Under the pieces are notes generated by a model that was given only the letters and a program-made list of their open reading frames with translations, made no database searches and was not told the origin of the DNA. The position numbers were made by a program, and so were the translations under genes. Of a stretch of 28,433 nucleotides of DNA, positions 2,169-27,137 are shown piece after piece (the first letter of the stretch is position 1; the number at the start of each line of letters is the position of its first letter). The DNA comes from Candidatus Latescibacterota bacterium (GTDB lineage: Bacteria; Latescibacterota; UBA2968; UBA8231): assembly GCA_965242865.1 (NCBI GenBank), contig CBDETK010000004.1:1-28433 (forward strand), in the 5' to 3' direction.

Positions 2169-2205
2169 GCATCTCTCACGGGGTGAGTTGGGAGTGGATT
2201 GAAAT
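2169..2205 (+). repeat. Solitary CRISPR-repeat-like unit 1
   Basis: GCATCTCTCACGGGGTGAGTTGGGAGTGGATTGAAAT: stem CTCTCA/TGGGAG plus 3' GTGGATTGAAAT; intergenic. Confidence 0.75.
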
Positions 2206-2219
2206 TGGCTTGTGTTCCC

Positions 2220-2247
2220 GTGTGGCCAGCCAAGCGGCTGGCCACAC
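2220..2247 (+). other. Perfect 12-bp hairpin downstream of repeat unit 1
   Basis: GTGTGGCCAGCC-AAGC-GGCTGGCCACAC; no U-tract follows. Confidence 0.8.
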
Positions 2248-2267
2248 CGCACTCAAGGGAGGCTATC

Positions 2268-3263
2268 ATGGCCCAAAAAAAACGAAAGCAACATCGGTAT
2301 GACATAGGCGCGGGGGGGGCGGCGGATGGGGCGACCTTGCGTGCTCGTTGGAAGCTCGGCAGCATCACGGCGGCTATTCGTCAGGCGTTGGCGCGGTCGG
2401 TGGCGGACGACCCTCCGGTGGCGGATGTAGCGGCGCTGGTGGCGGACGTAGAGTCGGCCAAAGAGGTTTTGTGGCGCGCGGTGCCCCCCGTGGGGCATGG
2501 GCGCGAGGCCCTCCTGCTGGCAGACCATTGTCGTATTGCCGTCGCGGATCTGGTCGATTACAAACGTCGGCTCCAGGCTATTTCGAATTCGTATGCGAAG
2601 TTGGAGGCGGATCGCGACGGGTACAAGCGGTCGCTTGCGGAGTGCGCTTCGGAGCGCGATGGGATGCAGGAGACCGTGCTCACCCTCCGGGCGGAGCGCG
2701 ATGCGTTGCAGGAGGATGTGGCAACCCTTAGGGATCGGATACGCGAGATGGAGGAGGTGCATCATAATACGGTGGAAGCGCAAACGGCGTTGCGGCGGGA
2801 GGCGCTGGCGACTCTCGTTGAGGCGGGGTTGTGCGACCGTGATACGATGCCGCTGCAGGCGGGTGTCAACCAAGCCAGAGACCGGTTCCACAGGGTGCGC
2901 GAGGATGTCAAAGCGCTGGAGGCCCATATAGACGCCTTGAAAGCGCGGGAGAAAGAGCGCAACGACCACTTCGAAAAGTCCCAGCGGGAGGCGGTGCAGG
3001 CTCTCGTAGAGGCGGGGTTGTGCGATGAGTGGAAGGCTGTCGATACGCTGAGCGCCAAAATAGCCCAAGCGGTGGAAAATTATCAGTGGTCTGTTACGAA
3101 TTGGGGGCGTCTCCAGGACGACCGCGACCGTATCAAGCGACAGGCCGAACGGGACGTAGAAAGCGCCCGGGTGCGTTGGATGATGTGGACGTGTCTGTCC
3201 TTTGCGGCGGGCGCGTCGTTGGCGGTGCTGGCTCTGGTGGCGTTCGGGGGCTTTTGGCAGTAA
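2268..3263 (+). CDS. Coiled-coil protein with a C-terminal transmembrane helix
   Basis: GGGAGG RBS + ATG 2268. Long heptad-like E/R/L/A-rich region, internal repeat REA...LVEAGLCD x2, hydrophobic C-terminus (WMMWTCLSFAAGASLAVLALVAFGGFW). Confidence 0.8.
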   Translation: MAQKKRKQHRYDIGAGGAADGATLRARWKLGSITAAIRQALARSVADDPPVADVAALVADVESAKEVLWRAVPPVGHGREALLLADHCRIAVADLVDYKRRLQAISNSYAKLEADRDGYKRSLAECASERDGMQETVLTLRAERDALQEDVATLRDRIREMEEVHHNTVEAQTALRREALATLVEAGLCDRDTMPLQAGVNQARDRFHRVREDVKALEAHIDALKAREKERNDHFEKSQREAVQALVEAGLCDEWKAVDTLSAKIAQAVENYQWSVTNWGRLQDDRDRIKRQAERDVESARVRWMMWTCLSFAAGASLAVLALVAFGGFWQ

Positions 3264-3394
3264 AAACAGGGCGCGGCTTGGTGTGGGAACCGTTCCCAAT
3301 CAGCGCGGCGTTTCGTCTCTCTAAAGGAGCCGGATTATCCGCGTCGCGGTCTAAAGGTCACCGGGCCGCGCCCACTAACCGAAGGAGAGGAATC

Positions 3395-3907
3395 ATGTTG
3401 TTGGATGAAAAGCAGTTGGAGGATTTGAAGCAGGAACAAGCGGAGCACGAGGCGGAGCTGGCTCCGGTACGGGAACGGTTGCTCGAAGCCCGTGCGCAGT
3501 TGGCGGAGGCGTCGGAGGGGATCCGCACCCGTCGGGACATGGAGCCGCGCCGTGCGGCGTTACCCTTTTTGTGTCGGCGCAACGAGTTGGAGTTGGAGTA
3601 TGACCGCGTGAAAGCCCAGTTGGATCGGGTGGCCGTGAAGATCGATCTGGGCAGTAACCCGCATTTGTTCCCTCTCAGGCCGGACGAACCGGAACATTAT
3701 ATGCTCGTTTGGGAGACGACCCTCCACGAGCAGGTGTGGGTGCGGCGCGATGCGCCTATCGACGATCTGCCGCCCACGGTCCGCGAGAGTTTCCGAAATC
3801 GGCTATTAGATGAGGAGCAGAAACGCGAGGCGGCGGAGGGCCGCCCCACCTACCAGGCTACGAACTACTGGGCCGGCGAGGAGGAGGATGACGAAGATGA
3901 AGACTAA
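3395..3907 (+). CDS. Hypothetical protein (N-terminal coiled coil, acidic tail)
   Basis: AAGGAGAGG RBS + ATG 3395; protein-like composition; operon context. Confidence 0.75.
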   Translation: MLLDEKQLEDLKQEQAEHEAELAPVRERLLEARAQLAEASEGIRTRRDMEPRRAALPFLCRRNELELEYDRVKAQLDRVAVKIDLGSNPHLFPLRPDEPEHYMLVWETTLHEQVWVRRDAPIDDLPPTVRESFRNRLLDEEQKREAAEGRPTYQATNYWAGEEEDDEDED

Positions 3908-4268
3908 GACCGAACAACCGTTCGCGCCTATGCGTAAGGGGCAGGTCATTGCGGTGGCTCGGGTCTGGTGGGACGAGGCGGAGGTGGTCTGGGGGTTTAC
4001 GCTCGCCCGGGTGGTGCGTACCAATCGCGAGGGGTTTGTGACGCACTTCGTCTTGAGCACGCGGGACGGGTTCCCCGATGCAACGCCGCGCAAGGCGACC
4101 CAAGGCAACACGCTGGGCATTACCGCGTGTTATGATATTGGGTGGGGCGCTCAGTCGGTGGGCGACCGCTTAGCGGGCGTCGTCTGGCCCAATCTCAAGG
4201 CGGCGCGGAAGGCGATCCGTGCGGCGTATGACGACCTGCCCCCACCGGAAAAAGGAGACCTAGCATGA
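3897..4268 (+). CDS. Hypothetical protein
   Basis: GGAGG upstream of ATG 3897 (3888 is an alternative start); overlaps the previous stop. Confidence 0.7.
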   Translation: MKTKTEQPFAPMRKGQVIAVARVWWDEAEVVWGFTLARVVRTNREGFVTHFVLSTRDGFPDATPRKATQGNTLGITACYDIGWGAQSVGDRLAGVVWPNLKAARKAIRAAYDDLPPPEKGDLA

Positions 4269-4292
4269 CCGAGCGCCGTAGCGTAGTAGCCT

Positions 4293-4329
4293 GTATCTCC
4301 CGCGGGCTGAGTCGGGAGTGGATTGAAAC
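4293..4329 (+). repeat. Solitary CRISPR-repeat-like unit 2
   Basis: GTATCTCCCGCGGGCTGAGTCGGGAGTGGATTGAAAC (37 nt); stem CTCCCG/CGGGAG. Confidence 0.8.
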
Positions 4330-4331
4330 CG

Positions 4332-4787
4332 ATGAGTAAGCCTACGCGCGGTCGGTCCCGCAGCCCCGTGTCCCGCGGCGAGCATGATGACCAGATACGG
4401 GCGTTGTATGAACGTGGCTACACCCACGCTGAGATCGCGGAGCGGGTTTGTTCAAACCGTACGACGGTCAGCTATCGGATCAAGGCGTTGGAGCTTACGC
4501 GGCCGGCGGGACCTCCCCGTCGGCCGCGCATCATCACGAGGCGCGGGAAGCTGAAGTCTGGGGCCTACGACAAGGCCGCCTATGACCCACACAAACGCCT
4601 CGCGGCGGATATATTGGCTCCCTTGTGTGAGGTTGCGAAATACGAACCAGACAGCAACGAGGGACGTCTGGCGCGCACCCAACTGCGTTGGGCGATGGGT
4701 ACTATCGAGTTGAACATCATTGGAGCGTGCATTACAATACTGGATGTGGAGCGGCAAGTCGCTGAAATTTTAACGAAGGAGGAGTAG
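4332..4787 (+). CDS. Helix-turn-helix DNA-binding protein
   Basis: IRALYERGYTHAEIAERVCSNRTTVSYRIKAL is a typical HTH pattern. Confidence 0.8.
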   Translation: MSKPTRGRSRSPVSRGEHDDQIRALYERGYTHAEIAERVCSNRTTVSYRIKALELTRPAGPPRRPRIITRRGKLKSGAYDKAAYDPHKRLAADILAPLCEVAKYEPDSNEGRLARTQLRWAMGTIELNIIGACITILDVERQVAEILTKEE

Positions 4788-5261
4788 ATGAACAAACCAC
4801 TCAAACGAATGCTCGATCAGCACACCGCACGGGTTGGTGAGGCTATTCAGTCCCTCGAGGATAAGCTCGCCCAAGCCAAGGGGGCGGCACATGCGGTTAG
4901 AGCTCGAAGGAGAACGAAACGCTACGCGAGGAACAACAAACGGCTGACACAGCAACTTGAGGCGGCCCGACGCTACGGGCTAATGGCAGCCAGTATGAAT
5001 AATCCGCACGTGTGGGTGCAACATTACGACGGCATGGCCGGTCGTTTTTTCAAGCAATACGCCAAACGGGCTCGTTGCGCCCTGGTGATCTCCCGAAAGA
5101 CCATGTTCACCGCGGGAAGAAAGGGCGGACGTGGTTTGCGCGTATCAGCCACGGGGCGGGGGGGGCGGTGCCCTATCGACGGGACCCCGATTCCAGTTGC
5201 GATGTCATATACCAATCGGGCTTTGACGACGCCCGAAGCGGCGATGTTGTGGAGCGGATAA
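4788..5261 (+). CDS. Hypothetical basic protein
   Basis: AGGAGG RBS; ATG directly after the previous stop. Confidence 0.7.
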   Translation: MNKPLKRMLDQHTARVGEAIQSLEDKLAQAKGAAHAVRARRRTKRYARNNKRLTQQLEAARRYGLMAASMNNPHVWVQHYDGMAGRFFKQYAKRARCALVISRKTMFTAGRKGGRGLRVSATGRGGRCPIDGTPIPVAMSYTNRALTTPEAAMLWSG

Positions 5262-5321
5262 TCAAGTAGCAGCGATCGACAACCTAATAACCAACCAACA
5301 AACCCAACGGAGGAAGTGAAG

Positions 5322-5492
5322 ATGAACGAGCAACATGAAGCGATGGAGCAAGCGCAGGACGATGCCAAGAGCGATGCGTCCCATGAGGGCGTCCGTATGC
5401 AGAACGCGCACGGCGGCGAGCTGGTGATCAACGAAGGGCTGGTGATGTACCGAAAAGTGCTTTGGGCGTTGCCCGAGCGCAAGACGCCGTAG
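5322..5492 (+). CDS. Small hypothetical protein (56 aa; not in the ORF track)
   Basis: A/C-rich leader and GGAGG RBS; MNEQHEAMEQ...LWALPERKTP*. GTG 5316 is an alternative start. Confidence 0.6.
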   Translation: MNEQHEAMEQAQDDAKSDASHEGVRMQNAHGGELVINEGLVMYRKVLWALPERKTP

Positions 5493-5511
5493 CGTAGTAG
5501 CGTAGGATCCT

Positions 5512-5584
5512 GTGTCTCCCGCGGGGTGAGTTGGGAGTGGATTGAGTAGTATTTCTCTCCAAATTTTGGAGAGTGGATTGAAAT
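5512..5584 (+). repeat. Two adjacent CRISPR-repeat-like units (3 and 4) of different types
   Basis: GTGTCTCCCGCGGGGTGAGTTGGGAGTGGATTGA (5512-5545) and ATTTCTCTCCAAATTTTGGAGAGTGGATTGAAAT (5551-5584; 8-bp stem CTCTCCAA/TTGGAGAG). Confidence 0.75.
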
Positions 5585-5641
5585 TGGAACAAGACGTGCT
5601 GGCGCGTGCCCTGCGGCGGCTATCGGATTGAACCCTCACCC

Positions 5642-5682
5642 CAACGCCCCTGTATCGCCTTCTGAGCGGCACAGGGGCGTTG
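5642..5682. terminator. Strong hairpin between the convergent early and late operons
   Basis: CAACGCCCCTGT...ACAGGGGCGTTG 12-bp inverted repeat. There is no clear U-tract, so terminator function is inferred from position. Confidence 0.55.
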
Positions 5683-5736
5683 CTATGCTATGACGCCAGT
5701 GGGCGTCCCCCAGCGCGACACGGGGCATCCGGGGCG

Positions 5737-8700
5737 CTAATCGACCACTTGGAACGTGAGCGGCATATAGATTGTTTCTGTGCCGTCCGACGCGATCAGC
5801 ACCGCCGGCCGGGGGTATAGGTCGGCGGTGCTTTGTGCGTTGGCCGACAACTGAAAGACGTTGCGCGCTAAGGTGACACTGCGGGCTATTTGCACCGGGC
5901 AGCCCGTCGTGTACGCAAAGCGTAGCGTGTAGGTGATCGTACGCCCCGCCACCGTGCTGGCATACGAGAAGTCCGCATTAGCGGTCTGTCGTTGCGTTCC
6001 GCGTGTCCCCTCATTGAACACCACAAAGTTGCGCGTCCCTTTCTTGATGGGATAGAAGGTCTGCGCGGGGATGCCCGAGGCGTTCGGTAGCTCATACGCC
6101 CACGTCAGGTTATTGGCGGCGGCCGTGGACGGCTGCACAAACGTCTTGAGGGTGCTTAGCTTGACGAAGCGGTTGGGGTCGCCGCTGGTGCTCTCATCGC
6201 TGACGACCATGCGGTCATCATCGTGCAGGGTCGTTAGCTCGGTGGTGACGTCATCGTGCAGGTCGAACGGGTCGGCGGTGGGTGTGCTACCCGTGCCAAT
6301 GAACGCCTTGAGCGTTGCCAGCGTAACATACCGGGTAGGGTCGCCGCTGGCCGACTCGTCGCTCACCACCATGCGGTCGTCGTTGTGTAAGGTGGTTAGT
6401 TGCGTCGTAACGTCGTCATGCAGGTCAAAGGCGTACCGATTATCAAGGGCCTGCAAGGTGATAAAGCGATTGGGCTGGTTGGCCGCCGACACGTCGGCCA
6501 CCACGAACTTGTCGAGCGGGTCTAAGCCCGAGCCGACCAACTGGGTGGGTACATCGATGTTGAGATGGAACCCCGGAACGTTCGCCCACTGACCTGTGTT
6601 GTTGACATACTGGAGCCTGCGGGACCTACTGCTATAGAAGGCATTGCCTTGTGTTCGAAAAAGCAAGTAACTCGCGAGAGAACCAACCGCCACATAGCGG
6701 TTGGGGTCACCTGATACGGACTCGTCACTAATAAGCATCCGATCCTCAGCATGTAAGGATGAGATAGCCGTGGTTACATCGTCATGCAAGTCAAACGAAC
6801 CGCCGCCACTGCTTAGGCCCGCTGTGAAGAACGTCTTGAGGGTGCTGAGGGTGACGTAGCGGTTCGGGTCGCCCGACGCCCCCTCGTCGCTAACCAACAT
6901 CCTATCGTCGTTATGCAGGGACGGAATGACCGTGGTAACGTCATCATGCAGGTCAAAATTCTTTAGCCCCGCCGTTATGAACGTCTTGAGGGTGCTGAGG
7001 GTGACGTAGCGGTTCGGGTCGCGGCTGGCCGACTCATCGCTTACAACCATGCGGTCGTCGTTGTGCAAGGTGGTTAGTTGCGTAGTAACGTCATCATGCA
7101 GGTCAAACGAGAAGAATAACTTGAGGGCGCCTAACGCGACATAGCGGTTCGGGTCGCCCACGAGCGACTCATCGCTAATCAACATCCTATCATCATTGTG
7201 CAGGGCCTGAATGACCGTGGTAACATCATCGTGCAAATCAAAATTGCCGCCGCCACTACTTAACCCCGCCGTGAAGAATGTCTTGAGGCTTGCCAACGTG
7301 ACATAGCGGTTCGGGTCGCCGCTTTCCGACTCATCGCTAATCAGCATCCGATCCTCATCGGCCAACGCCGCCGCCACCGTACTCACATCATCATGCAGGT
7401 CAAACGGGTCCGCCACAAACGTCTTGAGGGTTGCCAGCGTGACGTAGCGGTTCGGATCGCCACTAACTGATTCGTCGCTGATTAACATCCGGTCGCTGTT
7501 GTTCAGCGTTGTTAGTTGCGTAGTAACGTCATCATGCAGGTCAAACGCGAAGAACGGCTTGAGGCTTGCCAACGTGACATAGCGGTTCGGGTCGCCGCTT
7601 TCTGACTCATCGCTAATCAGCATCCGATCCTCATCGGCCAACGCCGCCGCGACCGTACTCACATCATCATGTAGGTCAAACGTCTCCACCGCCGGGACCG
7701 CCACATCCTCCCAACTATCTCCATCGTAGTATTCAAGATTGGACGGCGACGTGTTATCGTAGCGTACGTCATTCGCCGCCACGGGCAACTCAGTAACTGC
7801 CACATCCTCCCATTCGGCCATCGCCGTATAGCGTTCCAACTTGGACGGGCTAGTACGCGCATAGCGTATGTCGCCAGCCCGTGGGTCGCGCACGGGCACG
7901 TTCTGCCAAGCCGTGCCACTCCAATACTCAAGGGATGTTTCGCTGGAGGAGTCATAGCGCACATCGCCGCCCCCCGTGGTAACATCCACTTCAATAGGTA
8001 GGCTTATGCTCTCGTTGCCGCTGGTCGCTATCCACGTGAACGACACCACTTGCTCTGTCGAGGGAGCAGGGGCATTGATGGTAACAGCACCCGTCATTAA
8101 GTCCACGTCTAACCACGTAGGGAGCTCCATCGTGCTATATGCAATAGCGGCCATATCCACGGTGGAGACCGCCACGGGCAACACCGGCGAGAGCGGTGCT
8201 GTGACGGGCCGCCCCGCCTCAGCACGAAAACGCCGCGCGCCCGCCGTAGCCCATGTAAGCGTCGCGGCCGGGGCAACGGTCACATCGTCAATAGCAACAT
8301 AGATAGGCAAGCATATCGCCTCGTCGCCGCTCGTGGCGATCCATACAAACGACTCCGGCCCTTCGGGCGCATCCGCGATAGCCGTTACAATGCGAGTGGT
8401 AAGGTCCACACTGAGCCAGCTTGGAACATCGACCGCTGTATAGACGATAGACGCGCCGCTGGTCGTAGAGGATGCTTGAGGTAACGTGGGCGTTACCGGG
8501 TCTAACACACGGCTGCCCTCAACAATATCAATACGACGGGTGCCGCCCGCTTGGAAGGTGAGCTCGGCAGCAGGAACCGTGCCGGTTATAATTACGGGAG
8601 AAGTGGTAAGCCGTATTAGATTATCAGTAATAATATGGCCGCTAAGTAAAAAATTGAGGAGATTATATGAACTGTCTCTTCCATACCAACCGACTGAATC

Positions 8701-11700
8701 GGTTGCGGTCCCTATATTTGTTTCACTTGATTGTCTTACTGGTAATGCTCGAAGTTGTGAAACATCCAGCAGTTTACCTTCACCGGCACGATTTACTGCA
8801 ACAGGTGCGACCACCCATCCATCGGCTGGTATCGTTTTTGAACTTAGAGTTTCAAACGCATTTACCCCCGACGTTAGTTTCAAGTCAACTGAATACACTT
8901 CAACCGTAACTTGTCCATCCCCATAAAAACTACTTAGGCTTAATTTACCAGAACTACTATTACGATAAAAGGAAAAAGTCTGATCCCCGCCGTTCAAGTT
9001 AATGGTCGCATTATAACTAAACGCATATTCATTGTCTTGAGGATTAGTAGGACGACGAGCCTGTAATAATATGTTGGAATTTGCTGGTATGGTAATATCA
9101 GTATTTAGAATACCATCATAAGGAACCGAAAGAGAAACTCCTCCAATACGAGTGATTGCACTTCCCCCGCTTGTAGCGGGCAACGCCAATGTATGAATAC
9201 GACAAGCCGTTCCACTTATAATTTTCCCCTCATTATTAACTGAAAAACTACCTTCTATTCGTTGCCGGAAAGAACTAATAGCATCTGTTCTAAACCCATT
9301 CGCTCGCACTTCTGCGGCCCTTGCCCAACGTTGCGAACCTTTCTTACGTGCTGTTGGAGCAAACTGAATCCATAACCACCCGGTGGACGGGATGGTAAAC
9401 GACGACATGCCACTGCCCGAATACGTCCCTAACTCAGTAAGGGTAAAGTCTGGCGGCACACTGGTAGTTGCCGCAATAGACAGACTAATCGTTTGACAGA
9501 TCGCCTCTTCGCCGCTCTTAGCGATCCACACAAACGAAGCAAACGTGCTGACACTGGGCGCGTTGGCATTCGCCGTGACCTGCCGGGTAGTCGTATTGAC
9601 ACTCAGATACGAAGGAACGCCGCTGGTCTCGTAGGTGATCGTGCCGCCGCCGGTCTTGATGGCTTGCGGCAACGTGGGCGTCGTGGGGTTAAGCGTTTGG
9701 GTGCTGGGCGTAACCCCTATCATCGTGTCGCCGCCCGACGCCCACGTAAGCGTTGCTTGCGCTTCGGCGCCCAGCATAGCAATCTCAACGGCTATGACTT
9801 GGCTAATGGTCTCGTTGCCGCTGGTCGCCTGCCAGATGAACGACGCCGGCCCCGTCGGCGCTACATCCGTGGCGGTGACAGCCCGTGTGTTTACATCGAC
9901 GCTAAGCCATGTAGGGACGTTCAACGCCGCATACACAATCGCCGCGCTATCGGCTTGCATCGCTTCGGGGAGCACGGGAGCCACCGGGTCTAAGACATTG
10001 CTTTCCTCCGTGGCCCCAATACTAAACGGCTCGGTATTGCTCCACGTTAGCTTAGACACGACACCCGCGGTATCGGCGGGCGTCGTCACCTCCACCGTGC
10101 TCGCCGGCACGGAGCCGGTCACGAGCGTCCCCGTGGGCAGCCACCACGCGGCCCTGATGCGTATCTTCGTCTCAGCGGGTAGGCTGTCCAGAAGGATGTC
10201 GTCGCCCACGTCAACGCTCTCGCGCCGCCCTAAGCGCGTATAGGTCTCGACCGCGCCGGGCAACGGTGCCGCGGTAAGCGTCCCCCACTCCAACGAGACC
10301 TGCGGAAAGACGGCGTTGGTTATGTTAACCGTCACGCGGTCATGCAACAGGTCCTTCGTGGTGATCGTGGGGGGTGCGGTCGCCTGCTCGGGCAACGGCG
10401 TCGTATCGATCTCGCCTAACGCCGTCGAGGCACCAAACAACGTATCGGGATCCTCGCGCAGATAGGCTTGAAGCGTAAGCTCTTTCGTTACATTCGTCCT
10501 GACCACCCTAAACCGCTCGGCCGCGATCCCTTGCTGTGGGTCGGTCAAGGTGACATAATCCCCGGGGCGCACCGTGAGAAGCGCCAGGTTATCGCGGGGG
10601 CGTAAGACGTACGTGCTGCCCCTAAAGAGGCGCAGGTGGCGCAGGGCCAGCGCGGTAAGGCGTTGCGCGGTGTGTGCATTAGACACCAACGAGACATCGG
10701 GCAGCCGCTTTTTTAGGCGCACGTTGCCATCATCGGTCAGCGCATCGCTATTCGTCAATTGGATGTCGTAGGGCTGATAGTTCGCTTGGGCGGCCTGCTC
10801 GATCTTACAGGCAACCACGTTGATACGCTCCTCCACCGGGGGAGCGACATAGAACGGATTGCTCTGAACAATATCATCCGCGCTGAGCACCCGTGCGCCC
10901 GACGTGTAGGCGCGCCCCGGCTCGTAATAGACCTTGTCGCCATGCTCGACGACCGCGCCCTGCCACGCAAAGTCTAACTCCTCCTCCACCGCCCGCGGGT
11001 CATCACTATACTGCACAATCCCCGACACCGGGTACTGGATCGTGCGCGGCACCAACGCCACCGTGACCGTGCCACCAATCTGCTGAATAATCTTTTGGTG
11101 ATCCGCCGCCGAGATCGTCCACGAGGCATAGCCCGTGTGCCAGGTGGGGTCGGTCTGCCCCGACAGGTCCGCCCGCCGCAACGTACTCGTCGGACGGCCC
11201 TCGCCGTCTATGTCATCGGGATGGAGCCAGACCACCCCGCCATTCGCCAGCGTTATTTTTACTGAAACGCTATGCGTCCGCAGCCAATTCCCGATAGGTT
11301 GGGTCAGCGTGACGGTATTCGCGGTCTGCGTAGCCGCCTCCACGTTGACCCGGGCGGTATGCACCGCCCCCGTAGCACTTATCTCTATGTTCGTCAGCAG
11401 ATGGCCCGACGCATAAGTGCGTTGCGCGTCCGTGCCCGTGGGTGAAAAAGTGCGCTCACTCCCCAACTGCGACACGGCGCAAGAAACCGACAGCACGTCC
11501 GCAAACTCGACCGACCGCGCGCATTCGGCTACTGCCGACGTGAACGCGGTGCTATCCAACGACGCATCCTCATCGCCAAACACGCGCTTGCGGTAGTCGT
11601 AGCGGACCACCGCCGCATTTTCGGAAAACGTGGGCGTCGTCTGTCCGGGCCAAGTCGTCTTCAGACCGCGCACGAGAAAACGGATGTTCGGTACAGAATC

Positions 11701-12315: not shown

Positions 12316-12336
12316 TTCTGTTTTTTTCTCTAAAAC

Positions 12337-12349
12337 CTTCGTATATTAG
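12337..12349 (+). promoter_or_regulatory. Putative promoter of the mini-array (CTTCGTATATTAG)
   Basis: TATATT -10-like hexamer in a motif shared with 18205-18217 and 18346-18358; about 17 nt upstream of the first repeat. Confidence 0.65.
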
Positions 12350-12364
12350 GGTAGAGCAAGCCCA

Positions 12365-12539
12365 GTTCTTCCGCGGGCTAAGGCGGAAGTGGATTGAAAC
12401 TGAGGTTACGGAGCCGTCGCTGGCGGTGGCTATCGGTCTCCCCTTGCTTTGGTGAGGGGAGTGGATTGAAACATCATACGATACAGCCCCTCGGGCGCTT
12501 GATCCGGTCTCCCCTTGCTTTGGTGAGGGGAGTGGATTG
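12365..12539 (+). CRISPR. Phage-borne CRISPR mini-array: 3 repeats, 2 spacers, no cas genes in window
   Basis: R1 12365-12400 (GTTCTTCCGCGGGCTAAGGCGGAAGTGGATTGAAAC); spacer 35 nt; R2 12436-12472 (GTCTCCCCTTGCTTTGGTGAGGGGAGTGGATTGAAAC); spacer 34 nt; R3 12507-12539 is identical to the first 33 nt of R2. Confidence 0.9.
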
Positions 12540-12540
12540 C

Positions 12541-12576
12541 CGCCCGTCAACGCTTTTGGTTGGCGGGCGTTTTTTT
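12541..12576 (+). terminator. Rho-independent terminator closing the mini-array
   Basis: CGCCCGTCAAC/GTTGGCGGGCG stem (one G-U pair) followed by a T7 tract. Confidence 0.85.
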
Positions 12577-13075
12577 ATGCCCGCGCCAGCGGCCAGTCAA
12601 ATCGTTTTTCGCTCACCTCGTACATAAAATCCAATCCAATATCGGGGTCGCCCCCGCGCTCCTGCTCGCGCTGCCGCTCCGGTGTCCACACCGCATCCGG
12701 TTCCAACAAATTAAACTTGCGCTTGGAGACTTCCAACAACCACTCGCCGGCCTTATCGACGGTGCTCTGTCCCGCCGTCCCCGTGAAGCGATAGCCGGTG
12801 TCAGCCCATGCGCCGCCATCCGTCCGCGAAAGCAGATAAACCGACACGGTAGCCGGCCCCAAGTCTTCCGGTAGGGTCTGCCGTTGGGCGTCCGAGAGGG
12901 CGATAGCCACCGCCAAGGACGGCTCCGTACCCGCCTCCAGCGTGTGCTGCGGGAAACGGACGTCGAGCAGCCGGCCCCCCCCGCGATACACCTCGCTCTC
13001 AAACGTAATGTTTTGGGGGAACGTCGCCAAGCGTAGGGATGTTCCGATCTTCAAGAGAATAGCCGCGAATTGCAT
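12575..13075 (-). CDS. Minor tail / baseplate hub-like protein (166 aa)
   Basis: Lies between the distal tail and tail-tip genes. 'ITFESEVYRGGG' and C-terminal 'WT.E.Q......D.GLDF......F.W' pattern resembles siphophage hub N-terminal proteins. Confidence 0.7.
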   Translation of the reverse strand: MQFAAILLKIGTSLRLATFPQNITFESEVYRGGGRLLDVRFPQHTLEAGTEPSLAVAIALSDAQRQTLPEDLGPATVSVYLLSRTDGGAWADTGYRFTGTAGQSTVDKAGEWLLEVSKRKFNLLEPDAVWTPERQREQERGGDPDIGLDFMYEVSEKRFDWPLARA

Positions 13076-13077
13076 GA

Positions 13078-16173: not shown

Positions 16174-16179
16174 TTAGTT

Positions 16180-17599: not shown

Positions 17600-17867
17600 T
17601 TTCCTCTCCATTCTTCAAGTGAGACCCTTCAAACGTACCGCCTTCACCGCGTCCGACGACAATGCCTTTGGCTTCGGTGAGCACCCCGCCGGCGACCAAG
17701 AGAATAATATCGCGCACGATCTGCGGGGGGCTTTCAGACTTCCAGATCGCCATGCACACCCCGAACACGGCCACCGCCACAAAAAGGAACAACGCCCCCA
17801 TGACAACATGGGCGGCTACTTTTTCAACGCAATCGCGTTTGAAGCCATTGGAACTATGGTTGTCCAT
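17592..17867 (-). CDS. Small membrane protein, holin candidate (91 aa)
   Basis: Two hydrophobic segments (VVMGALFLFVAVAVFGVCMAIW; IILLVAGGVL) and a charged C-terminus. Confidence 0.55.
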   Translation of the reverse strand: MDNHSSNGFKRDCVEKVAAHVVMGALFLFVAVAVFGVCMAIWKSESPPQIVRDIILLVAGGVLTEAKGIVVGRGEGGTFEGSHLKNGEENG

Positions 17868-18074
17868 CTACCCCCCGGCCGGCGGCTCCTGCTCACTACG
17901 ATAGATGCACTCCCGCACCCACTGAACCTGCCCATTCGGGCTTCGCGGAGCCACCTGCACCCAAACAGTCAAGTGGTTATCATACGCCCCCGGCGACTCA
18001 TATTCATACCCCGCCCCCTTCTGACTCAACCGAACAATACGATCAAACTCGGCCGCATTCAAACTGATGGACAT
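17868..18074 (-). CDS. Hypothetical protein (68 aa)
   Basis: GAGGAGG RBS upstream; stop abuts the next ATG. Confidence 0.65.
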   Translation of the reverse strand: MSISLNAAEFDRIVRLSQKGAGYEYESPGAYDNHLTVWVQVAPRSPNGQVQWVRECIYRSEQEPPAGG

Positions 18075-18204
18075 ACTCGTTCCTCCTCAAGTGAAGTAAA
18101 GCAGTTCGTTGGCAAATAATAATGCGGCGACAGGGCCAACCAACCCGCCGCCGCGAACTAAACACATAGCAACTCTCTGTTGAGAGAAAGGATTGCTCTA
18201 CGCA

Positions 18205-18358
18205 CTAATATACGAAGAAACCACGCAAAACGCACAAAAAAAATCAAAGCATCTCGTTGGCCATGATAATCAGGGCCAGCATCACCGCACAAAATAGAAC
18301 GGTTCCCGTTTCCATACGTAGGCTCGCTTTTTTTATTCCTAATTCCTTCGTATATTAC
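18205..18358. promoter_or_regulatory. Divergent promoter pair with the CTTCGTATATTA motif
   Basis: - strand copy at 18205-18217 and + strand copy at 18346-18358, each preceded by a T-tract. Confidence 0.65.
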
Positions 18359-18362
18359 TAAT

Positions 18363-18467
18363 GTCGCATCATGCGACGCCTTTCGTCAAGGCTCGCGGGT
18401 TGGGGGTCGCTCCCCCGCCCGCATCTATGGCCCAACGAAAGGACACGCTTGACGAAAGGTCTAACCC
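18363..18467 (+). promoter_or_regulatory. Structured 5' leader of HNH gene 2
   Basis: 5' hairpin GTCGCA/TGCGAC, anti-SD CCTTTCGTCAAG, TCGCT-loop hairpin + ATCTA, two ACGAAAGG copies. Confidence 0.7.
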
Positions 18468-19046
18468 ATGATCAAACAATGCAGTGAATGCCCGAATACA
18501 GTCTCGCACTTTAACGCCAAGACGTGCTCTACGGGGTGTTCCAAGAAACGAAAAAAACGAATAGCCGCGGCGTACTACCAAAACAATAAAGCCGAAATAT
18601 CCCAAAAGAGTAAGCAGCATTATGCCGCTAACCGAAAAGCCATGATTGAGCGAGTTATGCGCCACTACTACGCCAATCCGCAGGCAGGGAAAGAGCGAGC
18701 TAAGAAGTGGAACAGAGCACATCCAGATGTCATAAATAGGCTTACCAGGGCACGATATAAACGGCTGGGAGGAAGGGGCTATCGTCGTCATCTTCCTGCA
18801 CTGCTCGTCAAGTATGGTTATATCTGCCAAATTAAAGGCTGCGAACTGCCGAGAGACCATTCCAAGATTGACGTGGACCACATCGTCCCTGTGGATGCCT
18901 GTATTGCTATGGGCTGGACTAAAAAGCAAATAAATGATCCGTACAATCTTCAACCGGCTTGTCCTTCTTGCAACTACGCCAAAGGGAACCAATGGGATGG
19001 CACCATGCCGGGCGAACCACCGGCTCAAATGGACTTGTTTGAGTAG
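18468..19046 (+). CDS. HNH endonuclease 2 (paralogue of 16284-16877)
   Basis: CQIKGC...IDVDHIVP...NDPYNLQPACPSCNYAK; shares MIKQC.ECP start and WDGT..GE.PAQM.LFE end with HNH 1. Confidence 0.92.
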   Translation: MIKQCSECPNTVSHFNAKTCSTGCSKKRKKRIAAAYYQNNKAEISQKSKQHYAANRKAMIERVMRHYYANPQAGKERAKKWNRAHPDVINRLTRARYKRLGGRGYRRHLPALLVKYGYICQIKGCELPRDHSKIDVDHIVPVDACIAMGWTKKQINDPYNLQPACPSCNYAKGNQWDGTMPGEPPAQMDLFE

Positions 19047-19051
19047 CGTTT

Positions 19052-21421
19052 TCAATTTACGGTCCAAACCTCAAGCGGCGAGATCGTCCGCACCAAATCG
19101 CAGGTAATGATCAACTCGCCAGTCGCCTGCCGCCCCACGCGCAGCGTATCCACGCGACCCGCGGCCGCATTTTGCACCTCGACCTCAATAGCCCCCGTGG
19201 TGGAAACCGCATTACTGCTATCGCCTATCCGCGAAGTCACCAGCCGCCCCAACTCCGAGCCGCTGATCAGCACATCGCCGCAGTGAAAACCGCCCAAGAC
19301 GAGCCGAAATAGCTTGTCGGTATAATCACTCGGCAGTGCGTAGCCCGTATCGGCCCATTGATTGAGGCTGGTGATAGCCACGTTCTGCGAGTGCTGCTTG
19401 ACCACCCCCGGCGGGATCGTCGGCGCGTTGTTGATGTCATCATAATCAACCGGACGCTTGGCGACCGGGATAGCATCCTCATTGCCTACCAGCGTCCACG
19501 GCTCGACGTTGGGCGTCAACCGCATCCACCCCGTGGGCGTCCGCATCGTCGCCGGCTGGTATTCCCAGATATTGCGAAAATCGGCGGTGCTACTATACTC
19601 CCTTTGAAACCCTCTATGATACTGAAGGATCGCGGCGATCTCGCGGCGCGTCGCCCGCGGCTGGTGCGAGTAGTCGAGCGACGCAATCGTGCCCGTCGCG
19701 CCCGACACCGACTGGGTATTCCGCGAGAAAGACAGTTGCCCCAAGTTCGTCCACGTCTGATCGCCCACCCGACGGACACGTACATAGAACGTAGGGTTAA
19801 CCGCCTGCGTGACGGCCATCGTGCGGATCGCAACGGTAAGGCGCTGATAGCGCGGGTCGCCGCCGTCCACGAAACCCAACGACCAAGCGATGTCAAAGGG
19901 GGCACCGTCCGCTGCGGTATTGCCGGCGATCGTACCATTGCCGCGCCAGTCCGCGTCTTTGGAAGCCCCGTCGAGGATGACCGTGCCGCGACCGCGGTTT
20001 TCAACCGCCATTTCTTCGGTGGTCAGACCAATGATATAAGGAGCACCCGTGCTCGGCTCAACCAGTTGTATCGTCCCCTCCGCAACGCCCGTGGTGGCTG
20101 TGGGCGCATCCACGCTGTGAGGCAATATGACAAGCCCCCCGGCATTGCCGTGCGTCACAGCGCGTATGGCGGCCTCTAAGCCGCTAATAAAGCGGGCGGC
20201 GATGTCGATATGCTCCAGTTGATCGGGGGCATCCCATTGCGCTTGCAATTTGGATGCCGCGGGGATGTCCGCGATCGGCAAGTTGTAGTACCAATAATGG
20301 TCGTCGTCACCCAAGTAGGTTGCGCCCGTAGTGGCAATAACGAGAGCCTCCGCCTCGTCGCCCGTGACCACCCGAAAGAGCGCCAAGTCGTCGGTCGAAG
20401 GCTGTATTTCGTAGAGCGTCTTGGGAACGCGGAAAGCAATGTTCTTGCCCGTCTCACGCGCCGCCACCGTCCGCGTGGCGGTGTACGTGGCCGCCTTCGC
20501 GGTCGCCTCCGTATAGGCATCGTCCGCTATGGGCGACAACCACAGGCCATCCTCGGCGCGCCACGAGCCATCGACCACATCGTCGTTGAGCCGCTCAACA
20601 TTAGGCAGGGCCGCCTTAATCGCCGCGACCGCATCGGCGGCCGTGAACGGCGGCGACGCCGCCGGAATATCCGGGCGGTTGTCTATATCCGTGTTCCAAT
20701 CCCAATTCTGACCGCCCAACTCAGCCTTGTCTTTGACGTGGCTTCGTATCAGCGCGACCACCGCGGCGGCGTCTAACGTGGCCCCATTACCGCCCCCGCC
20801 CTGCCCCGTGGGCAAGTGGGAGGCAAGGAAAACCGTATTGGGACCGGGCGACCGAGTGCCGAACAGGAACGCATACGCCGACTCCACATAATCACGAGCC
20901 TGATCGTTGGCCTCTTGGCGCACCGTCGCAAACGTTAAAATATCATCGGTGAACGCCACATCCGACGGCAAGTTCTCGCGCCGTATCGGCACGATATGGC
21001 CGTCGTCATACCGCTGCGCCCAGTCCTGCACATGCCGCAAAAACGCTTGAAACACCGGGCTGGTGGAGCTATGCGGGGGAGCCAATACGTTATCGGTGGT
21101 TTCGTGCAAATGGATGTCGTCCAGAAAACGAATGGTTCGGCTCCATACCGCCACCTCGCCCACGTTCGGCTCGGTGTTCATAATGGTCACCCGATAGTAA
21201 TGACCCGCGGGCGTGGTTTCCAGAAAGATGTCGAGCATCCCCTGCGCGTTGGTACGCCCCGAAAAGCTCGTGGGGACCACCACGCCCGTCGCGGCGTTCA
21301 CCCACCGCGCCGTCTCGCCGGTACGACCATACTGATCGACCGCCTCAACCCGCACCAACTGGTACGGCAACACGCCCAAGTCAAGGTTTAACGTGCTCAC
21401 ATGTAACGTATGGAGTGCCAT
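19052..21421 (-). CDS. Putative tail fibre / minor virion protein (789 aa)
   Basis: Long A/T/G/D-rich ORF in the structural operon with Gly linkers; no recognised family. Confidence 0.6.
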   Translation of the reverse strand: MALHTLHVSTLNLDLGVLPYQLVRVEAVDQYGRTGETARWVNAATGVVVPTSFSGRTNAQGMLDIFLETTPAGHYYRVTIMNTEPNVGEVAVWSRTIRFLDDIHLHETTDNVLAPPHSSTSPVFQAFLRHVQDWAQRYDDGHIVPIRRENLPSDVAFTDDILTFATVRQEANDQARDYVESAYAFLFGTRSPGPNTVFLASHLPTGQGGGGNGATLDAAAVVALIRSHVKDKAELGGQNWDWNTDIDNRPDIPAASPPFTAADAVAAIKAALPNVERLNDDVVDGSWRAEDGLWLSPIADDAYTEATAKAATYTATRTVAARETGKNIAFRVPKTLYEIQPSTDDLALFRVVTGDEAEALVIATTGATYLGDDDHYWYYNLPIADIPAASKLQAQWDAPDQLEHIDIAARFISGLEAAIRAVTHGNAGGLVILPHSVDAPTATTGVAEGTIQLVEPSTGAPYIIGLTTEEMAVENRGRGTVILDGASKDADWRGNGTIAGNTAADGAPFDIAWSLGFVDGGDPRYQRLTVAIRTMAVTQAVNPTFYVRVRRVGDQTWTNLGQLSFSRNTQSVSGATGTIASLDYSHQPRATRREIAAILQYHRGFQREYSSTADFRNIWEYQPATMRTPTGWMRLTPNVEPWTLVGNEDAIPVAKRPVDYDDINNAPTIPPGVVKQHSQNVAITSLNQWADTGYALPSDYTDKLFRLVLGGFHCGDVLISGSELGRLVTSRIGDSSNAVSTTGAIEVEVQNAAAGRVDTLRVGRQATGELIITCDLVRTISPLEVWTVN

Positions 21422-24796: not shown

Positions 24797-24810
24797 TTTT
24801 TTCCTCCTAT

Positions 24811-24841: not shown

Positions 24842-24857
24842 CGCTCTGTTCGTCCGG

Positions 24858-25586: not shown

Positions 25587-25607
25587 GGTAGAACTCCTCT
25601 TTTGGTT

Positions 25608-25931
25608 TTAAGTGGCGGCTACACAAAACAACGTCAGCCACCGTCGATCAAACTCTTTGACCCAGCGTATCGACCACGTGCGCCCCACATCATCCACGAC
25701 ATACCAGCGGGGCGTCATAGCCCGCAACGTCGGGCTCCAACGAAAACGAAACGTGGTCTGCCATTGCTCGACGTCCACCCCCACCTCCTCCGTGTCGCGC
25801 CCCCCGCGGTCTATCCGCGTAGCAAAGACAATATGCTCCACCGGGGTATTGCGCTGCGGGTCACCGTGCGATGTAGTGCCCGTAACTGCACCGGGTTCGT
25901 AGAGTCGGATACGACGCGTACCCTCAGCCAT
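25608..25931 (-). CDS. Head-closure / head-tail adaptor (SPP1 gp16-like)
   Basis: 'RRIRLYEP...G......VFA.........F..RW...........W.I..V..FDRRWLTL.C' pattern. Confidence 0.85.
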   Translation of the reverse strand: MAEGTRRIRLYEPGAVTGTTSHGDPQRNTPVEHIVFATRIDRGGRDTEEVGVDVEQWQTTFRFRWSPTLRAMTPRWYVVDDVGRTWSIRWVKEFDRRWLTLFCVAAT

Positions 25932-26014
25932 GGGTTAGTCCCTTCTATGAGGCCGGGGTGTTTCCACCCCGGAAATTATACGAACCCGGTGCAGTTTCGG
26001 ACACTATTCATCCA

Positions 26015-26581
26015 CTACAACGCGGCGTGAAGGGGACGCAAGGGCCCCAACAGCCGATCTAACGCACGAAAATCATTCGGCAGGCCCCCGCCGTTGTATA
26101 GCTGCCGCACCAGCAAGACCAACGCCTGCGCCAGCACCGTATCTTTGGGACGACGACCCAGCGTCAACCCGAGGGTCACATTCAGACGCCAGCGCAGATC
26201 CCGAGCATGGGCCGGCCACCCGGCCGGCGGCGCGTTCACGACAACAACATCCGTCGTCGGCGTCACCGTCGTCTCCACATCACCCCAATCATCCGTTTCA
26301 ATCCACTCTCCCTCCGAAGAAGGAGAGAAATACGCGATGCTCTGAAGACTCTTGAACCCTCGCGCCTCAAACACGAGCGCATTCATAGCGCCCATGGGCG
26401 GGTTCGTCGTAAGAACACTCGCCCTATCCACCAGCGGGTAGTCTATGCTTGCCTCGACCCACCCCACCGCCGACGCCAACTGATCCAACAGAAGCGTATC
26501 GTGGTAGGTCTCGTCCACCGCTAAACGCAATTCTAAGCGCAAGCGATCTAACGAGCATATATCGGTAGGCTGAGCGACCAT
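26015..26581 (-). CDS. Head-tail connector (HK97 gp6 / SPP1 gp15-like)
   Basis: 'SLDRLRLELRL......DTLL....SA..WVE' and 'QALVLLVRQLY' motifs. Confidence 0.88.
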   Translation of the reverse strand: MVAQPTDICSLDRLRLELRLAVDETYHDTLLLDQLASAVGWVEASIDYPLVDRASVLTTNPPMGAMNALVFEARGFKSLQSIAYFSPSSEGEWIETDDWGDVETTVTPTTDVVVVNAPPAGWPAHARDLRWRLNVTLGLTLGRRPKDTVLAQALVLLVRQLYNGGGLPNDFRALDRLLGPLRPLHAAL

Positions 26582-26587
26582 AGAGCG

Positions 26588-27001
26588 TTAGGAGCGCGTA
26601 GGCTTAGGCTTGGGACGCTTAGCGTCGCGGGTCTCCACCTCGACGCCCTGCCGACGCGCAAGCTCGACCAATTTTCGTGACGTATCTCGATGCGCCAACA
26701 GACCCACGTCATGGATTCGCAACAAATTAACCAGCATCTCTTCCTCCGTTTCTTGGCGCACCGCCAGACCGCGCGACACCATATCGTCCACCTCAGAGGC
26801 CGGGACCAGCACTAACTGACCGCGCTTATACGGACAGCCCCCCGGGGCCACCCAATGGGTACGAAGGCGCACCCGCTCCAGCGGAATATCCGCCTTGCGC
26901 TTCTCACCCTCCAAGCGGTGCTCCTCCAACTGGGCGATCTCGGCTTGGCGGCGACGCGCTTGCTCGCGAGCCGCCGCCTCCTTCATCGTCATCGTAGGCA
27001 T
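26588..27001 (-). CDS. Hypothetical capsid-adjacent protein (137 aa)
   Basis: GAGGAGAGGGG RBS; 'YKRGQLV.VP......MVSRGLA' motif is seen in small post-capsid phage proteins. Confidence 0.7.
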   Translation of the reverse strand: MPTMTMKEAAAREQARRRQAEIAQLEEHRLEGEKRKADIPLERVRLRTHWVAPGGCPYKRGQLVLVPASEVDDMVSRGLAVRQETEEEMLVNLLRIHDVGLLAHRDTSRKLVELARRQGVEVETRDAKRPKPKPTRS

Positions 27002-27016
27002 ACCCCTCTCCTCTCT

Positions 27017-27137
27017 GTTTCAATCGTTTCAATCCACTCCCGACTTAGCCCTCGGGAGAACGGGGCTTACGCTAAGGCTACTGCGCCTTGATCTTCAACT
27101 TGTTTCAATCCACTCCCGACTTAGCCCTCGGGAGAAC
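27017..27137 (-). CRISPR. Repeat-spacer-repeat unit after the capsid gene, plus a 9-nt repeat remnant
   Basis: Two identical 36-mers GTTCTCCCGAGGGCTAAGTCGGGAGTGGATTGAAAC (- strand; 27102-27137 and 27026-27061) separated by 40 nt; extra GATTGAAAC at 27017-27025. Confidence 0.8.

Follow-up and report, generated by a model that had tools for sequence, protein, structure and literature searches.

Why should a tailed phage carry, scattered among its own genes, hairpins that look like the repeats of a CRISPR array? The question is raised by contig CBDETK010000004.1 of the Candidatus Latescibacterota assembly GCA_965242865.1, which was analysed over its whole length of 28,433 nucleotides (nt) and is referred to as the window. 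The original prediction, made from the letters of this window, listed nine such units and proposed that a phage exploits the RNA processing of host Cas proteins at five loci, the units serving as decoys, guides or mRNA cut sites. Judged by their sequence, the units are copies and diverged derivatives of the type I-C repeat in a tailed phage whose host has that system, and the evidence assembled below points to a phage that borrows or jams the immune RNA machinery of its host. In the reading to which we incline, with modest confidence, the units are I-C repeat mimics recognised by the host nuclease Cas5c and act as guides, decoys and RNA cut sites.

Identification of the units

In the window, 11 copies of the motif TGGATTG are present where 3.37 would be expected, and none of 100 shuffled sequences reaches 11. 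These sites correspond to the nine units already listed, the coordinates of which proved right to within 2 nt (5551 is better placed at 5549), to a tenth unit at 26295-26333 on the minus strand, and to a site at 12632-12638 on the minus strand that is devoid of hairpin and looks like a chance occurrence. The count of nine units at five loci is consequently corrected to ten units (u1 to u10) at six loci. Five of these loci hold the seven solitary units, among which no fewer than four stem types occur. Their common form is T-CTC...stem/loop...GAG-TGGATTG, in which the hairpin is directly followed by an 11-nt tail ending in GGATTGAAAC. As predicted, a hairpin then TGGATTG and mostly AAAY is found: the full tail with its AAAY continuation is held by eight of the ten units, while u3 and u7 retain TGGATTG only, the continuation being broken to TGGATTGAGTA and TGGATTGCCGC, respectively. 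Units measure 36-39 nt, the stem comprising 6-10 bp and the loop 3-10 nt, and all of the stem pairs quoted in the original prediction are present in the sequence.

The covariance model that had been suggested as a check was trained on just six units, all belonging to a single sub-family. When run on the window, this model returns exactly the 10 units at E <= 0.0045 and nothing further below E = 1. It also recovers 41 of the 41 repeats of the host array described in the next section, all of them outside the training set (24.9 bits), and thereby links the units of the window with those repeats. In the whole 6-Mb genome at E <= 0.1, 19 matches are located on phage contigs, 41 in the array and 1 elsewhere. 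The best match in the Rfam library is CRISPR-DR9 (RF01322), with 28.8 bits for 4293-4329, which is under the gathering score of 45, and with 20-21 bits for three more units.

In the alignment fitted by the model, 69 of 69 cells pair and changes on both sides are displayed by three of the six pairs, with none in six slid controls; pair counts obtained from a structure-fitted alignment do lean towards structure. When pairs are numbered upwards from the base of the stem, there is hardly any variation in pairs 1-3 and 5 (CTC/GAG), whereas pairs 6 and 7 occur in five types each. The constant parts of the units are the stem base and the 11-nt tail, the loops being divergent. Of 12 sequences that were folded, 11 form the stem in their minimum-energy structure.

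All units were originally placed between main genes. This stands for nine of the ten, which are confined to the 7% of the window left non-coding by a gene list compiled by hand (binomial P of 4e-10 by unit and 9e-6 by locus), and it fails for u10, located inside a coding gene. Seven of the ten units are co-oriented with their flanking genes and the remaining three form a mini-array with its own terminator. The solitary units are all on the sense strand, u1-u4 on the plus-strand operon and u8-u10 on the structural operon, and six of the seven are intergenic.

The host type I-C system and its repeat

The window is the whole of a 28.4-kb contig (C4) in an assembly of 13 contigs totalling 6.0 Mb. 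The statement that no cas genes are present is true of the window and does not extend to the assembly, as the chromosome contig C13 carries the operon cas3-cas5c-cas8c-cas7-cas4-cas1-cas2, in which Cas1c, Cas7/Csd2, Cas8c and Cas5c all score above I-C-specific NCBIfam cut-offs. The cas5c gene occupies C13:3531026-3531826. The adjoining array is composed of 41 identical 37-nt repeats and 40 spacers of 34-37 nt. Unit u6 matches this repeat at 36 of 37 positions and u7 at 33 of 37. The supposed likeness to class 1 repeats is thus borne out, specifically for type I-C, and the outcome that was to speak against the prediction, namely a lack of similar repeats in any cas-linked array, is the opposite of what the array beside the I-C operon displays. 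Through the 36/37 match, a phage without detected relatives is linked to an uncultured host.

Matches to PF09704, the Cas5d family, are confined to C13 within the assembly, which argues against a phage-encoded Cas5; PF01881 (Cas6) gives no match in the genome, and neither Cas5d nor Cas1 matches were detected on the phage contigs. A second variant of the phage is represented by contigs C2 and C11, 92-98% identical to C4 and carrying their own unit set, so that all phage comparisons made here concern two variants from a single assembly (C4 versus C2 plus C11).

The older host I-C spacers 36-38 match the co-assembled contigs C9, C12 and C6 with 2-6 mismatches, mostly proximal to the protospacer-adjacent motif (PAM), and with non-TTC flanks, which as far as sequence can tell is the pattern of escape variants. 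The I-C system therefore appears to have met elements of this community. On C9 and C12 the spacer target is found twice each, about 10.4-10.5 kb apart.

A mini-array with its own terminator

Three of the units, u5 to u7, are arranged as an array. The features of this segment are as follows.

12338..12351, plus strand: promoter-like motif TTCGTATATTAGGG, 13 nt upstream of u5; the same segment stands before the u5 equivalent in C11
12365..12400, plus strand: u5, first repeat, stem CTTCCGC/GCGGAAG, tail TGGATTGAAAC; 53.3 bits, fold z-score -2.36
12401..12435, plus strand: spacer 1, 35 nt, between u5 and u6
12436..12472, plus strand: u6, second repeat, the host repeat with one change (36/37); 29.9 bits, fold z-score -3.86
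12473..12506, plus strand: spacer 2, 34 nt, between u6 and u7
12507..12543, plus strand: u7, terminal repeat, 33/37 to the host repeat; 16.7 bits
12541..12576, plus strand: intrinsic terminator, an 11-bp stem followed by T7; the top-ranked terminator-like site
12901..12935, minus strand: site resembling a protospacer of spacer 1, within the phage gene next to the array (12575-13075, minus strand)

With repeats near-identical to those of the host, spacers of host length (35 and 34 nt, compared to 34-37 nt in the host array), a repeat period of 71 nt, a terminator and no cas genes, segment 12365-12576 is a self-contained viral mini-CRISPR. The proposal that units could serve as guides fits this segment, which is a true mini-array. 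The sole change of u6 is a C to T at position 27 of the host repeat, which is position 1 of the tail. Unit u7 is degenerate only in its last bases, where the tail (TGGATTGCCGC) merges into the terminator stem. As for the promoter originally assigned to these units, a scan for the sigma-70 consensus detects none before the mini-array; what stands is a 14-nt motif common to two sites of the window. A peak of sequencing depth at 12079-12832, seen with contigs of four public runs, derives from host-array contigs.

Spacer 1 matches the phage's own gene at 30 of 35 positions in C4, and the corresponding sequence at 31 of 35 in C11 and 30 of 35 in C2. The mismatches to the C4 site are at positions 1, 3, 6, 19 and 20; mismatches near the PAM are likewise seen for the host array's own spacers on C9 and C12.

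Solitary units in the phage operons

The remaining units and their associated elements are the following.

2169..2205, plus strand: u1, solitary, stem CTCTCA/TGGGAG, tail TGGATTGAAAT; 53.2 bits
4293..4329, plus strand: u2, solitary, stem CTCCCG/CGGGAG, tail TGGATTGAAAC; 57.5 bits
5512..5548, plus strand: u3, solitary, tail shortened to TGGATTGA by the start of u4; 53.2 bits
5549..5584, plus strand: u4, solitary, 8-bp stem CTCTCCAA/TTGGAGAG; 25.8 bits, outside the training set, fold z-score -2.58
5624..5633, plus strand: tail-only relic CGGATTGAAC, 39 nt past u4, with the host-type C at tail position 1 and without hairpin; 7.2 bits, E 4.4, not significant alone
5644..5681, plus strand: stem-loop AACGCCCCTGT...ACAGGGGCGTT, which ends the plus-strand operon without a T run and was missed by the terminator scan
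18203-18216 (motif) and 18173-18187 (hairpin), minus strand: second copy of the promoter-like motif, with 1 mismatch, and a tail-less hairpin CTCTC/GAGAG
26295..26333, minus strand: u10, 9-bp stem CTCTCCTTC/GAGGGAGAG, loop TTCG, tail TGGATTGAAAC; 26.5 bits, fold z-score -2.40
27026..27061, minus strand: u9, solitary, stem CTCCCGA/TCGGGAG; 54.3 bits
27102..27137, minus strand: u8, solitary, stem CTCCCGA/TCGGGAG as in u9; 54.3 bits; 18 nt past the stop codon of the major head gene

On the plus strand, u1 precedes the ATG at 2269 by 63 nt and is identical from stem to tail in contig C2, and the tail of u2 is separated by 2 nt (CG) from the ATG of a helix-turn-helix (HTH) gene (4333-4787). Units u3 and u4 close the operon, u4 being the last unit and followed, after about 39 nt, by the tail relic and the stem-loop. 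On the minus strand, u8 and u9 are located between the head gene and the next cistron and result from a 76-nt tandem duplication that includes the last 20 nt of the head gene; contig C11 has a single copy. Downstream of u9 are found a duplicated GATTGAAAC, a Shine-Dalgarno sequence and the ATG at 27001. A solitary host unit of a related genome (G049:C1:107463-107517; genomes are designated by G numbers, G000 being that of the window) mirrors u9, its tail being at once followed by a second copy of the last nine bases, GATTGAAAC (window 27026-27036). At the place equivalent to 18173-18216, contig C11 has an intact u5-type unit, which lies in the leader of the operon starting at 18074.

Unit u10 is in frame within a 188-residue head-tail adaptor-like open reading frame (ORF) at 26015-26581. 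The 127 homologues (about 185 residues) align end to end, with the unit overlying their variable loop and no added length. An interpretation of u10 as a 13-codon insertion was ruled out, as the homologues are equally long there.

The units belong to a part of the genome that seems to rearrange. Contigs from public runs display joints at units, from 2205 to 5522 (u1 to u3), from 4328 to 4296 (a tandem u2 duplicate) and from 4765 to 5509, and one public-run variant lacks 12317-12578, the whole mini-array cassette being replaced by 14 other bases. These joints and the cassette-less variant indicate that the units are a fluid part of the genome, with the reservation that short-read assembly at repeats can also yield joints. 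The units might be regarded as DNA recombination substrates, short homologies to the host array by which the phage could recombine into or with CRISPR loci, or as neutral scars of such events, spread within the phage by duplication. Such an explanation would account for the 26 contiguous identical bases that u6 shares with the host repeat, and for the movement of units together with their flanks, as in the u8/u9 duplication or in the 21-nt flank shared by u2 and u3 (a 55-nt match). It would also agree with the presence of the promoter-plus-u5 cassette at different places in C4 and C11, with the public-run joints and variant, and with the integration mediated by solitary repeat units (SRUs) that has been proposed (PMC8616872; this and the other cited papers are drawn on for their main text). 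Neutral scars, on the other hand, would not stay paired through changes on both sides, nor would they all be on the sense strand or hold the full 11-nt tail in eight of ten cases while the loops diverge. In addition, no junction between phage and array was seen, the loose ends at 12436 and 12473 being the host array's own flanks, and assembly ambiguity at repeats is another source of the joints. We regard this explanation as improbable. In another public-run contig, a host-type unit is joined to a different Shine-Dalgarno-ATG context.

Units before cellular genes in related genomes

Solitary units with C at tail position 1, of consensus hairpin plus CGGATTGAAAY, are also present in the chromosomes of related bacteria, at the positions below.

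Solitary host-type units in G026, G035 and G039: G026:C232, C157, C227 and C184; G035:C334; G039:C1:3414946
Solitary host-type units in G043, G051 and G032: G043:C1:1503272 and 1506758; G051:C1:2278252 and 2281741; G032:C19
Solitary host-type units in G034, G042 and G044: G034:C27; G042:C1:548816; G044:C1:103276 and 226219

Eleven solitary C-type units from five genomes of the genus were listed regardless of their downstream context. The tail of five of the eleven ends 0-1 nt before the ATG of an ORF of at least 50 codons, an ATG within 0-2 nt being expected at about 5% of positions. Orthologous sites are involved: a unit stands before a proteasome subunit gene and after the Pup ligase gene in G026, G035, G043 and G051, before a PpiC rotamase gene in G026 and G039, and before an 81-codon ORF in G026 and G044. 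Other units are located 17 nt before the ATG of pyruvate dehydrogenase (PDH) E1 in G026 and 21 nt before recJ in the window's own chromosome (G000:C13:1560223). One of the ORFs preceded by a unit starts with MNRRESHEYDK. Genomes G051 (a single contig) and G034 contain units and give no match to PF09704, and no Cas6 match (PF01881) was obtained in the five genomes tested.

The occurrence of such modules before ordinary genes of host genomes weakens a purely anti-CRISPR reading and strengthens the option of an mRNA cut site or leader, so that, among the roles originally suggested, the mRNA cut site has gained weight. Solitary units could then be leader or intercistronic expression modules near start codons, acting as a processing site that yields a defined 5' end or as a hairpin that hides the ribosome-binding sequence GGAG. 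The phage would merely make use of a device of its host, which Cas5c may or may not read. We hold this, the main rival of our reading, possible, though well short of likely. It would explain why 5 of 11 units taken without regard to context end 0-1 nt before an ATG and recur at orthologous cellular sites, and why phage u2 adopts the same geometry of tail, CG and ATG. The C11 unit of u5 type, inserted between a promoter-like motif and the first gene of an operon, the position of u8/u9 parting the head gene from the next cistron, and the retention of units in G051 and G034 without a PF09704 match all point the same way. Left unexplained are the mini-array, with its spacers of host length and its own terminator, the position of u3 and u4 at an operon end that no further gene follows, and u10 inside its ORF. 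Moreover, the GGAG of the 3' arm is 11-13 nt from the ATG, compared to 6-8 nt for the evident Shine-Dalgarno sequences of the phage, and leader use would be unusual, repeat-like sequences being depleted in intergenic regions outside cas loci (10.1101/2023.03.03.530964).

A bolder version keeps the nuclease. In this lineage the I-C hairpin and tail would serve quite generally as a cis-acting mRNA module for Cas5c, positioned by the host, at sites orthologous between species, 0-1 nt ahead of the AUG of proteasome, PpiC and other cellular genes; the phage would have copied it in order to divide its operons while also carrying a real mini-array. We consider this doubtful. If true, it would describe a CRISPR ribonuclease with a housekeeping role in RNA processing or translation control, exploited by a virus; should the host-side units be functional, CRISPR repeats would also contribute to the expression of ordinary genes, a larger matter than the phage finding.

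Proposed mechanism

Recognition of the units by host Cas5c as I-C repeat mimics, the interpretation preferred here, builds on observed features, namely identity of sequence and structure with the host repeat, the cas operon, the anatomy of the array and the placement and orientation of the units. From these we infer transcription of the units, their binding and cleavage by Cas5c, loading into Cascade and any effect on immunity or gene expression. The mechanism can be briefly summarized as follows. The RNA of a unit would fold into a hairpin, of which Cas5c would read the base (CUC/GAG) and the 11-nt 3' tail, and the enzyme would be expected to bind and to cut after the last G of the stem. CRISPR RNAs (crRNAs) released from the mini-array would load into host Cascade as guides chosen by the phage, most likely directed against related phages. 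Spacer 1 may originate from a relative's copy of the neighbouring phage gene, in which case competing related phages would be excluded while the carrier's own copy would be spared by PAM and seed mismatches. The solitary units would titrate Cas5c and could seed Cas7 on phage RNA, yielding unproductive complexes in the manner of the decoys known as RNA anti-CRISPRs (Racrs). The same cuts would split the polycistronic RNAs of the phage at gene borders.

What is known of the enzyme is compatible with such a scheme. For Cas5c, what matters is the base of the stem together with the cut site and the bases U22-G23-G24 of the 3' overhang, loop and 5' overhang being of no consequence (PMC8524198); the conserved parts of the units therefore match the parts that it reads. 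Its cut falls 11 nt before the repeat end (PMC8524198), so that the 8 nt at which processed ends were originally to be sought should be replaced by 11 nt for type I-C. In the Desulfovibrio vulgaris enzyme a tryptophan is inserted between tail bases 1 and 2 and a neighbouring lysine is needed for activity; natural variation is known for two residues of the catalytic triad, Tyr and His (PMC8524198).

The first tail base deserves particular attention, as two repeat classes accompany two forms of Cas5c in the genus. The first form is 88-100% identical to that of the host and displays FWEP and K-Y; the second, in-genus canonical form is 43-48% identical and displays HWKP and K-H at the same positions. 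The tryptophan of these motifs is the one that in D. vulgaris lies between the first two tail bases. Canonical I-C repeats of 32 nt, in which the tail starts with T, form arrays in G026, G042, G046 and G052 of the same genus. By this comparison, the phage units appear to combine a stem base of the host class with the canonical first tail base. The T may make them uncut decoys or broad-range substrates, or it may be neutral. A tail base that co-varies with two Cas5c forms would offer a handle on the substrate choice of Cas5c and on mimics that bind without being cut.

In one contig of G026 (G026:C52, L197 7380-7800), canonical 32-nt repeats make up an array that closes with a single 37-nt repeat, a member of the other class. 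No close Cas5c is found in G044 and G049, although both carry arrays of the 37-nt class; G044 has only a partial PF09704 match. Ends of canonical I-C repeats were also observed in pairs 42-45 nt apart (spacers of about 10-13 nt), outside large arrays, at G031:C84:156141/156183, G032:C421:8165/8210, G033:C171:44259/44303 and G034:C18:51427/51472; these closely paired ends may be regulatory mini-arrays.

A number of observations weigh against recognition of the units by the host enzyme, or against a role in immunity. The first group concerns the tail and the enzyme. Position 1 of the tail is T in 20 of 20 phage units (C2, C4 and C11), compared to C in each of the 41 repeats of the host array. 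The same C characterises 37-nt-class arrays from other members of the family, with the exception of the terminal repeat of the G049 array. The host Cas5c is the divergent form (FWEP, K-Y) and, in view of the tail-base difference, might read the phage units poorly. The same module precedes cellular genes of related genomes, two of which have no Cas5d-family match, so that dependence on Cas is not a given. The second group concerns the targets. The 5' flank of the spacer 1 match is GGA rather than the I-C PAM TTC, and perfect targets for spacers 1 and 2 were sought in the genome, GenBank phages and IMG/VR with none found, spacer 2 having no match at all. In the opposite direction, 0 of the 40 spacers of the I-C array and 0 of the 56 spacers of a second host array match this phage at 24 nt or more, so that pressure of the I-C system on this phage is hypothetical; a search of the genus genomes for spacers with window 1-20000 gave four short matches, none flanked by repeats. 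The third group concerns the units themselves. Units u8-u10 belong to the structural block, apparently a late operon, which seems late to block an existing Cascade, and u10 is located in a gene that looks essential, in which cutting would be costly to the phage. For u1-u3 the z-scores of folding are weak (-0.1 to -0.6, within a range extending to -3.86 for u6), and between the two phage variants the units are no better conserved than their flanks (7 differences in 264 positions versus 72 in 2255).

Comparison with known systems

Viral mini-CRISPR arrays were reportedly described by Faure et al. (2019) and Medvedeva et al. (2019). The mini-array of the window has much in common with arrays of this kind: one or two spacers, no cas genes, repeats near-identical to those of the host and a degenerate last repeat (PMC11656645, PMC8616872). 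Viral arrays with host repeats mostly target related viruses (PMC11656645, PMC8616872); spacer 1, which matches the carrier and its two sister contigs alike at 30-31 of 35 positions, may likewise relate to a similar virus and only imperfectly to the carrier. The mini-array differs in the stem of u5, which is completely unlike those of the other two repeats, in the one-base change at the cut-adjacent position that both host-like repeats share, and in its targets, where only a partial match with a non-PAM flank could be found in place of a perfect one.

By their sequence features, the solitary units would qualify as SRUs of the Racr kind. SRUs act as Racrs, among which RacrIC1, produced on one transcript with a gene, is a validated I-C example (PMC10651486); by analogy, this precedent lends some support to the decoy role suggested at the outset. 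The likeness extends to intergenic solitary repeat mimics in the presence of a host with the cognate subtype, one of them behind a promoter-like motif, and, for RacrIC1, to co-transcription with a protein gene (PMC10651486). A Racr would be expected to have a promoter within about 250 bp and to be expressed as a small RNA; in the window, the 14-nt motif precedes u5 and the hairpin of 18173-18216, the sigma-70 scan gives no promoter there, and most units lie inside operons. The present case departs from Racrs in the number of its solitary units, seven distributed over five loci of a 28-kb region and with stems of four types or more, and in their embedding in operons and, in one instance, in an ORF. 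Several dispersed SRUs per genome are not mentioned in the main text of PMC10651486, the supplementary tables of which might list them. In IMG/VR, among 80 of at least 120 loci, only single units or arrays were observed, no locus having more than two non-array matches (best score 33.9 bits).

A third class of viral elements, the crRNA-like regulators (Cracrs), offers another explanation, in which the sequence downstream of a unit pairs with a cas promoter by a PAM and Cascade silences the cas genes or a guarding toxin. The layout of u4, in which the repeat is followed by about 39 nt, the tail relic and the stem-loop, and that of the mini-array do resemble published Cracr units and arrays, which associate a repeat-like element, a spacer-like sequence and a terminator, and of which multiplexed examples are known, including nine two-spacer I-C arrays (10.1101/2024.10.29.618823). 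The host operon, moreover, has a repeat-like element of its own between cas4 and cas1. A partial match to a cas or toxin promoter, by which Cracrs are defined, was looked for in the host cas locus (18 kb) and not found: of 16 distinct downstream sequences (C4, C2 and C11), none matches a promoter region of this locus over nine or more PAM-proximal bases, the only 10-nt match in the locus has a TTT flank, and the cas4-cas1 element gave no detectable target by the same test. This explanation is very improbable, and for the present host it was rejected on the absence of cas-promoter matches; targets in other strains are possible. The cas4-cas1 element itself is a degenerate repeat at L012:4888-4924 on the minus strand (G000:C13:3527387-3527423), with leader-like sequence before it, and is followed by AGGGAGA and a second tail copy CGGATTGAAAC; no PAM-proximal target was detected for the sequence after it.

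With canonical I-C repeats the units share the hairpin, the 11-nt 3' overhang ...GGAUUGAAAC, the determinants at the stem base and first tail bases, and the U at tail position 1 (PMC8524198). They depart from them in their hairpins, where the 7-bp stem and the pentaloop of canonical repeats (PMC8524198) are replaced by stems ranging from 6 to 10 bp and loops ranging from 3 to 10 nt, in their lengths of 36-39 nt rather than 32, and in the location of most copies outside arrays.

Engineered cleavage sites of the Cas6-family nuclease Csy4 (Cas6f) serve as laboratory insulators between cistrons. The units resemble them as hairpin cut sites located between cistrons or just before a coding sequence and defining mRNA ends, a natural counterpart with Cas5c being only proposed here.

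One small genome thus combines the known viral borrowings of CRISPR RNA, a guide array and solitary mimics. In the main text of the cited papers, from which the supplements may differ, several aspects seem to be without description: how numerous and how dispersed the units are within one small phage region, the diversity of stems around a fixed core read by Cas5c, a unit inside a gene, a uniform change of the first tail base that tracks two Cas5c forms, and host-side units at start codons. The supplementary SRU lists of PMC10651486 and Table S2 of 10.1101/2024.10.29.618823 might hold similar multi-SRU phages or I-C arrays.

The phage contigs and other observations

The minus strand of the window, from 28431 down to 5737, is occupied by a structural block of a tailed phage, with products identified as major head, head-tail adaptor-like, head completion and tail completion proteins, an endolysin-like domain, a tape measure protein and a 2192-residue ORF. 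On the plus strand, positions 1 to 5261 hold genes for an ankyrin-repeat protein, a Dam-type methylase and an HTH protein, as well as others whose products have no known function. Two of these genes precede the operon that bears the units.

3-311 and 515-1321, plus strand: genes of the ankyrin-repeat protein and of the D12-class adenine methyltransferase, respectively, upstream of the unit-bearing operon

Relatives of the phage were sought by several routes. A megablast of 25 kb against GenBank phages gave no match. The major head protein matched nothing in IMG/VR or in a metagenome collection; from 76 host-family genomes it recovered the two copies of its own and, beyond these, a single weak match (E 5.5e-6). 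Five metagenomic stretches satisfied the DNA pattern of the main unit sub-family, none with a convincing unit (the best, at 23.6 bits, had a broken stem). Anti-CRISPR proteins were looked for near the units, and the three small phage proteins compared had no meaningful match among PDB sequences.

The 2192-residue ORF (5737-12315, minus strand) has no family match. Its part at 6140-7680 is composed of diverged tandem repeats and gives many alignments with contig C2.

The host chromosome finally carries a second CRISPR system, of the type III-D kind (Csx10, Csx7-like RAMPs and Cas10), at G000:C13:4796507-4800832 and in upstream cas genes, with an array of 57 repeats ending in GGGGATTGAAAC. Near full-length matches to the host's own chromosome are displayed by 18 of its 56 spacers, 12 of them perfect, and one spacer matches at about 20 places.

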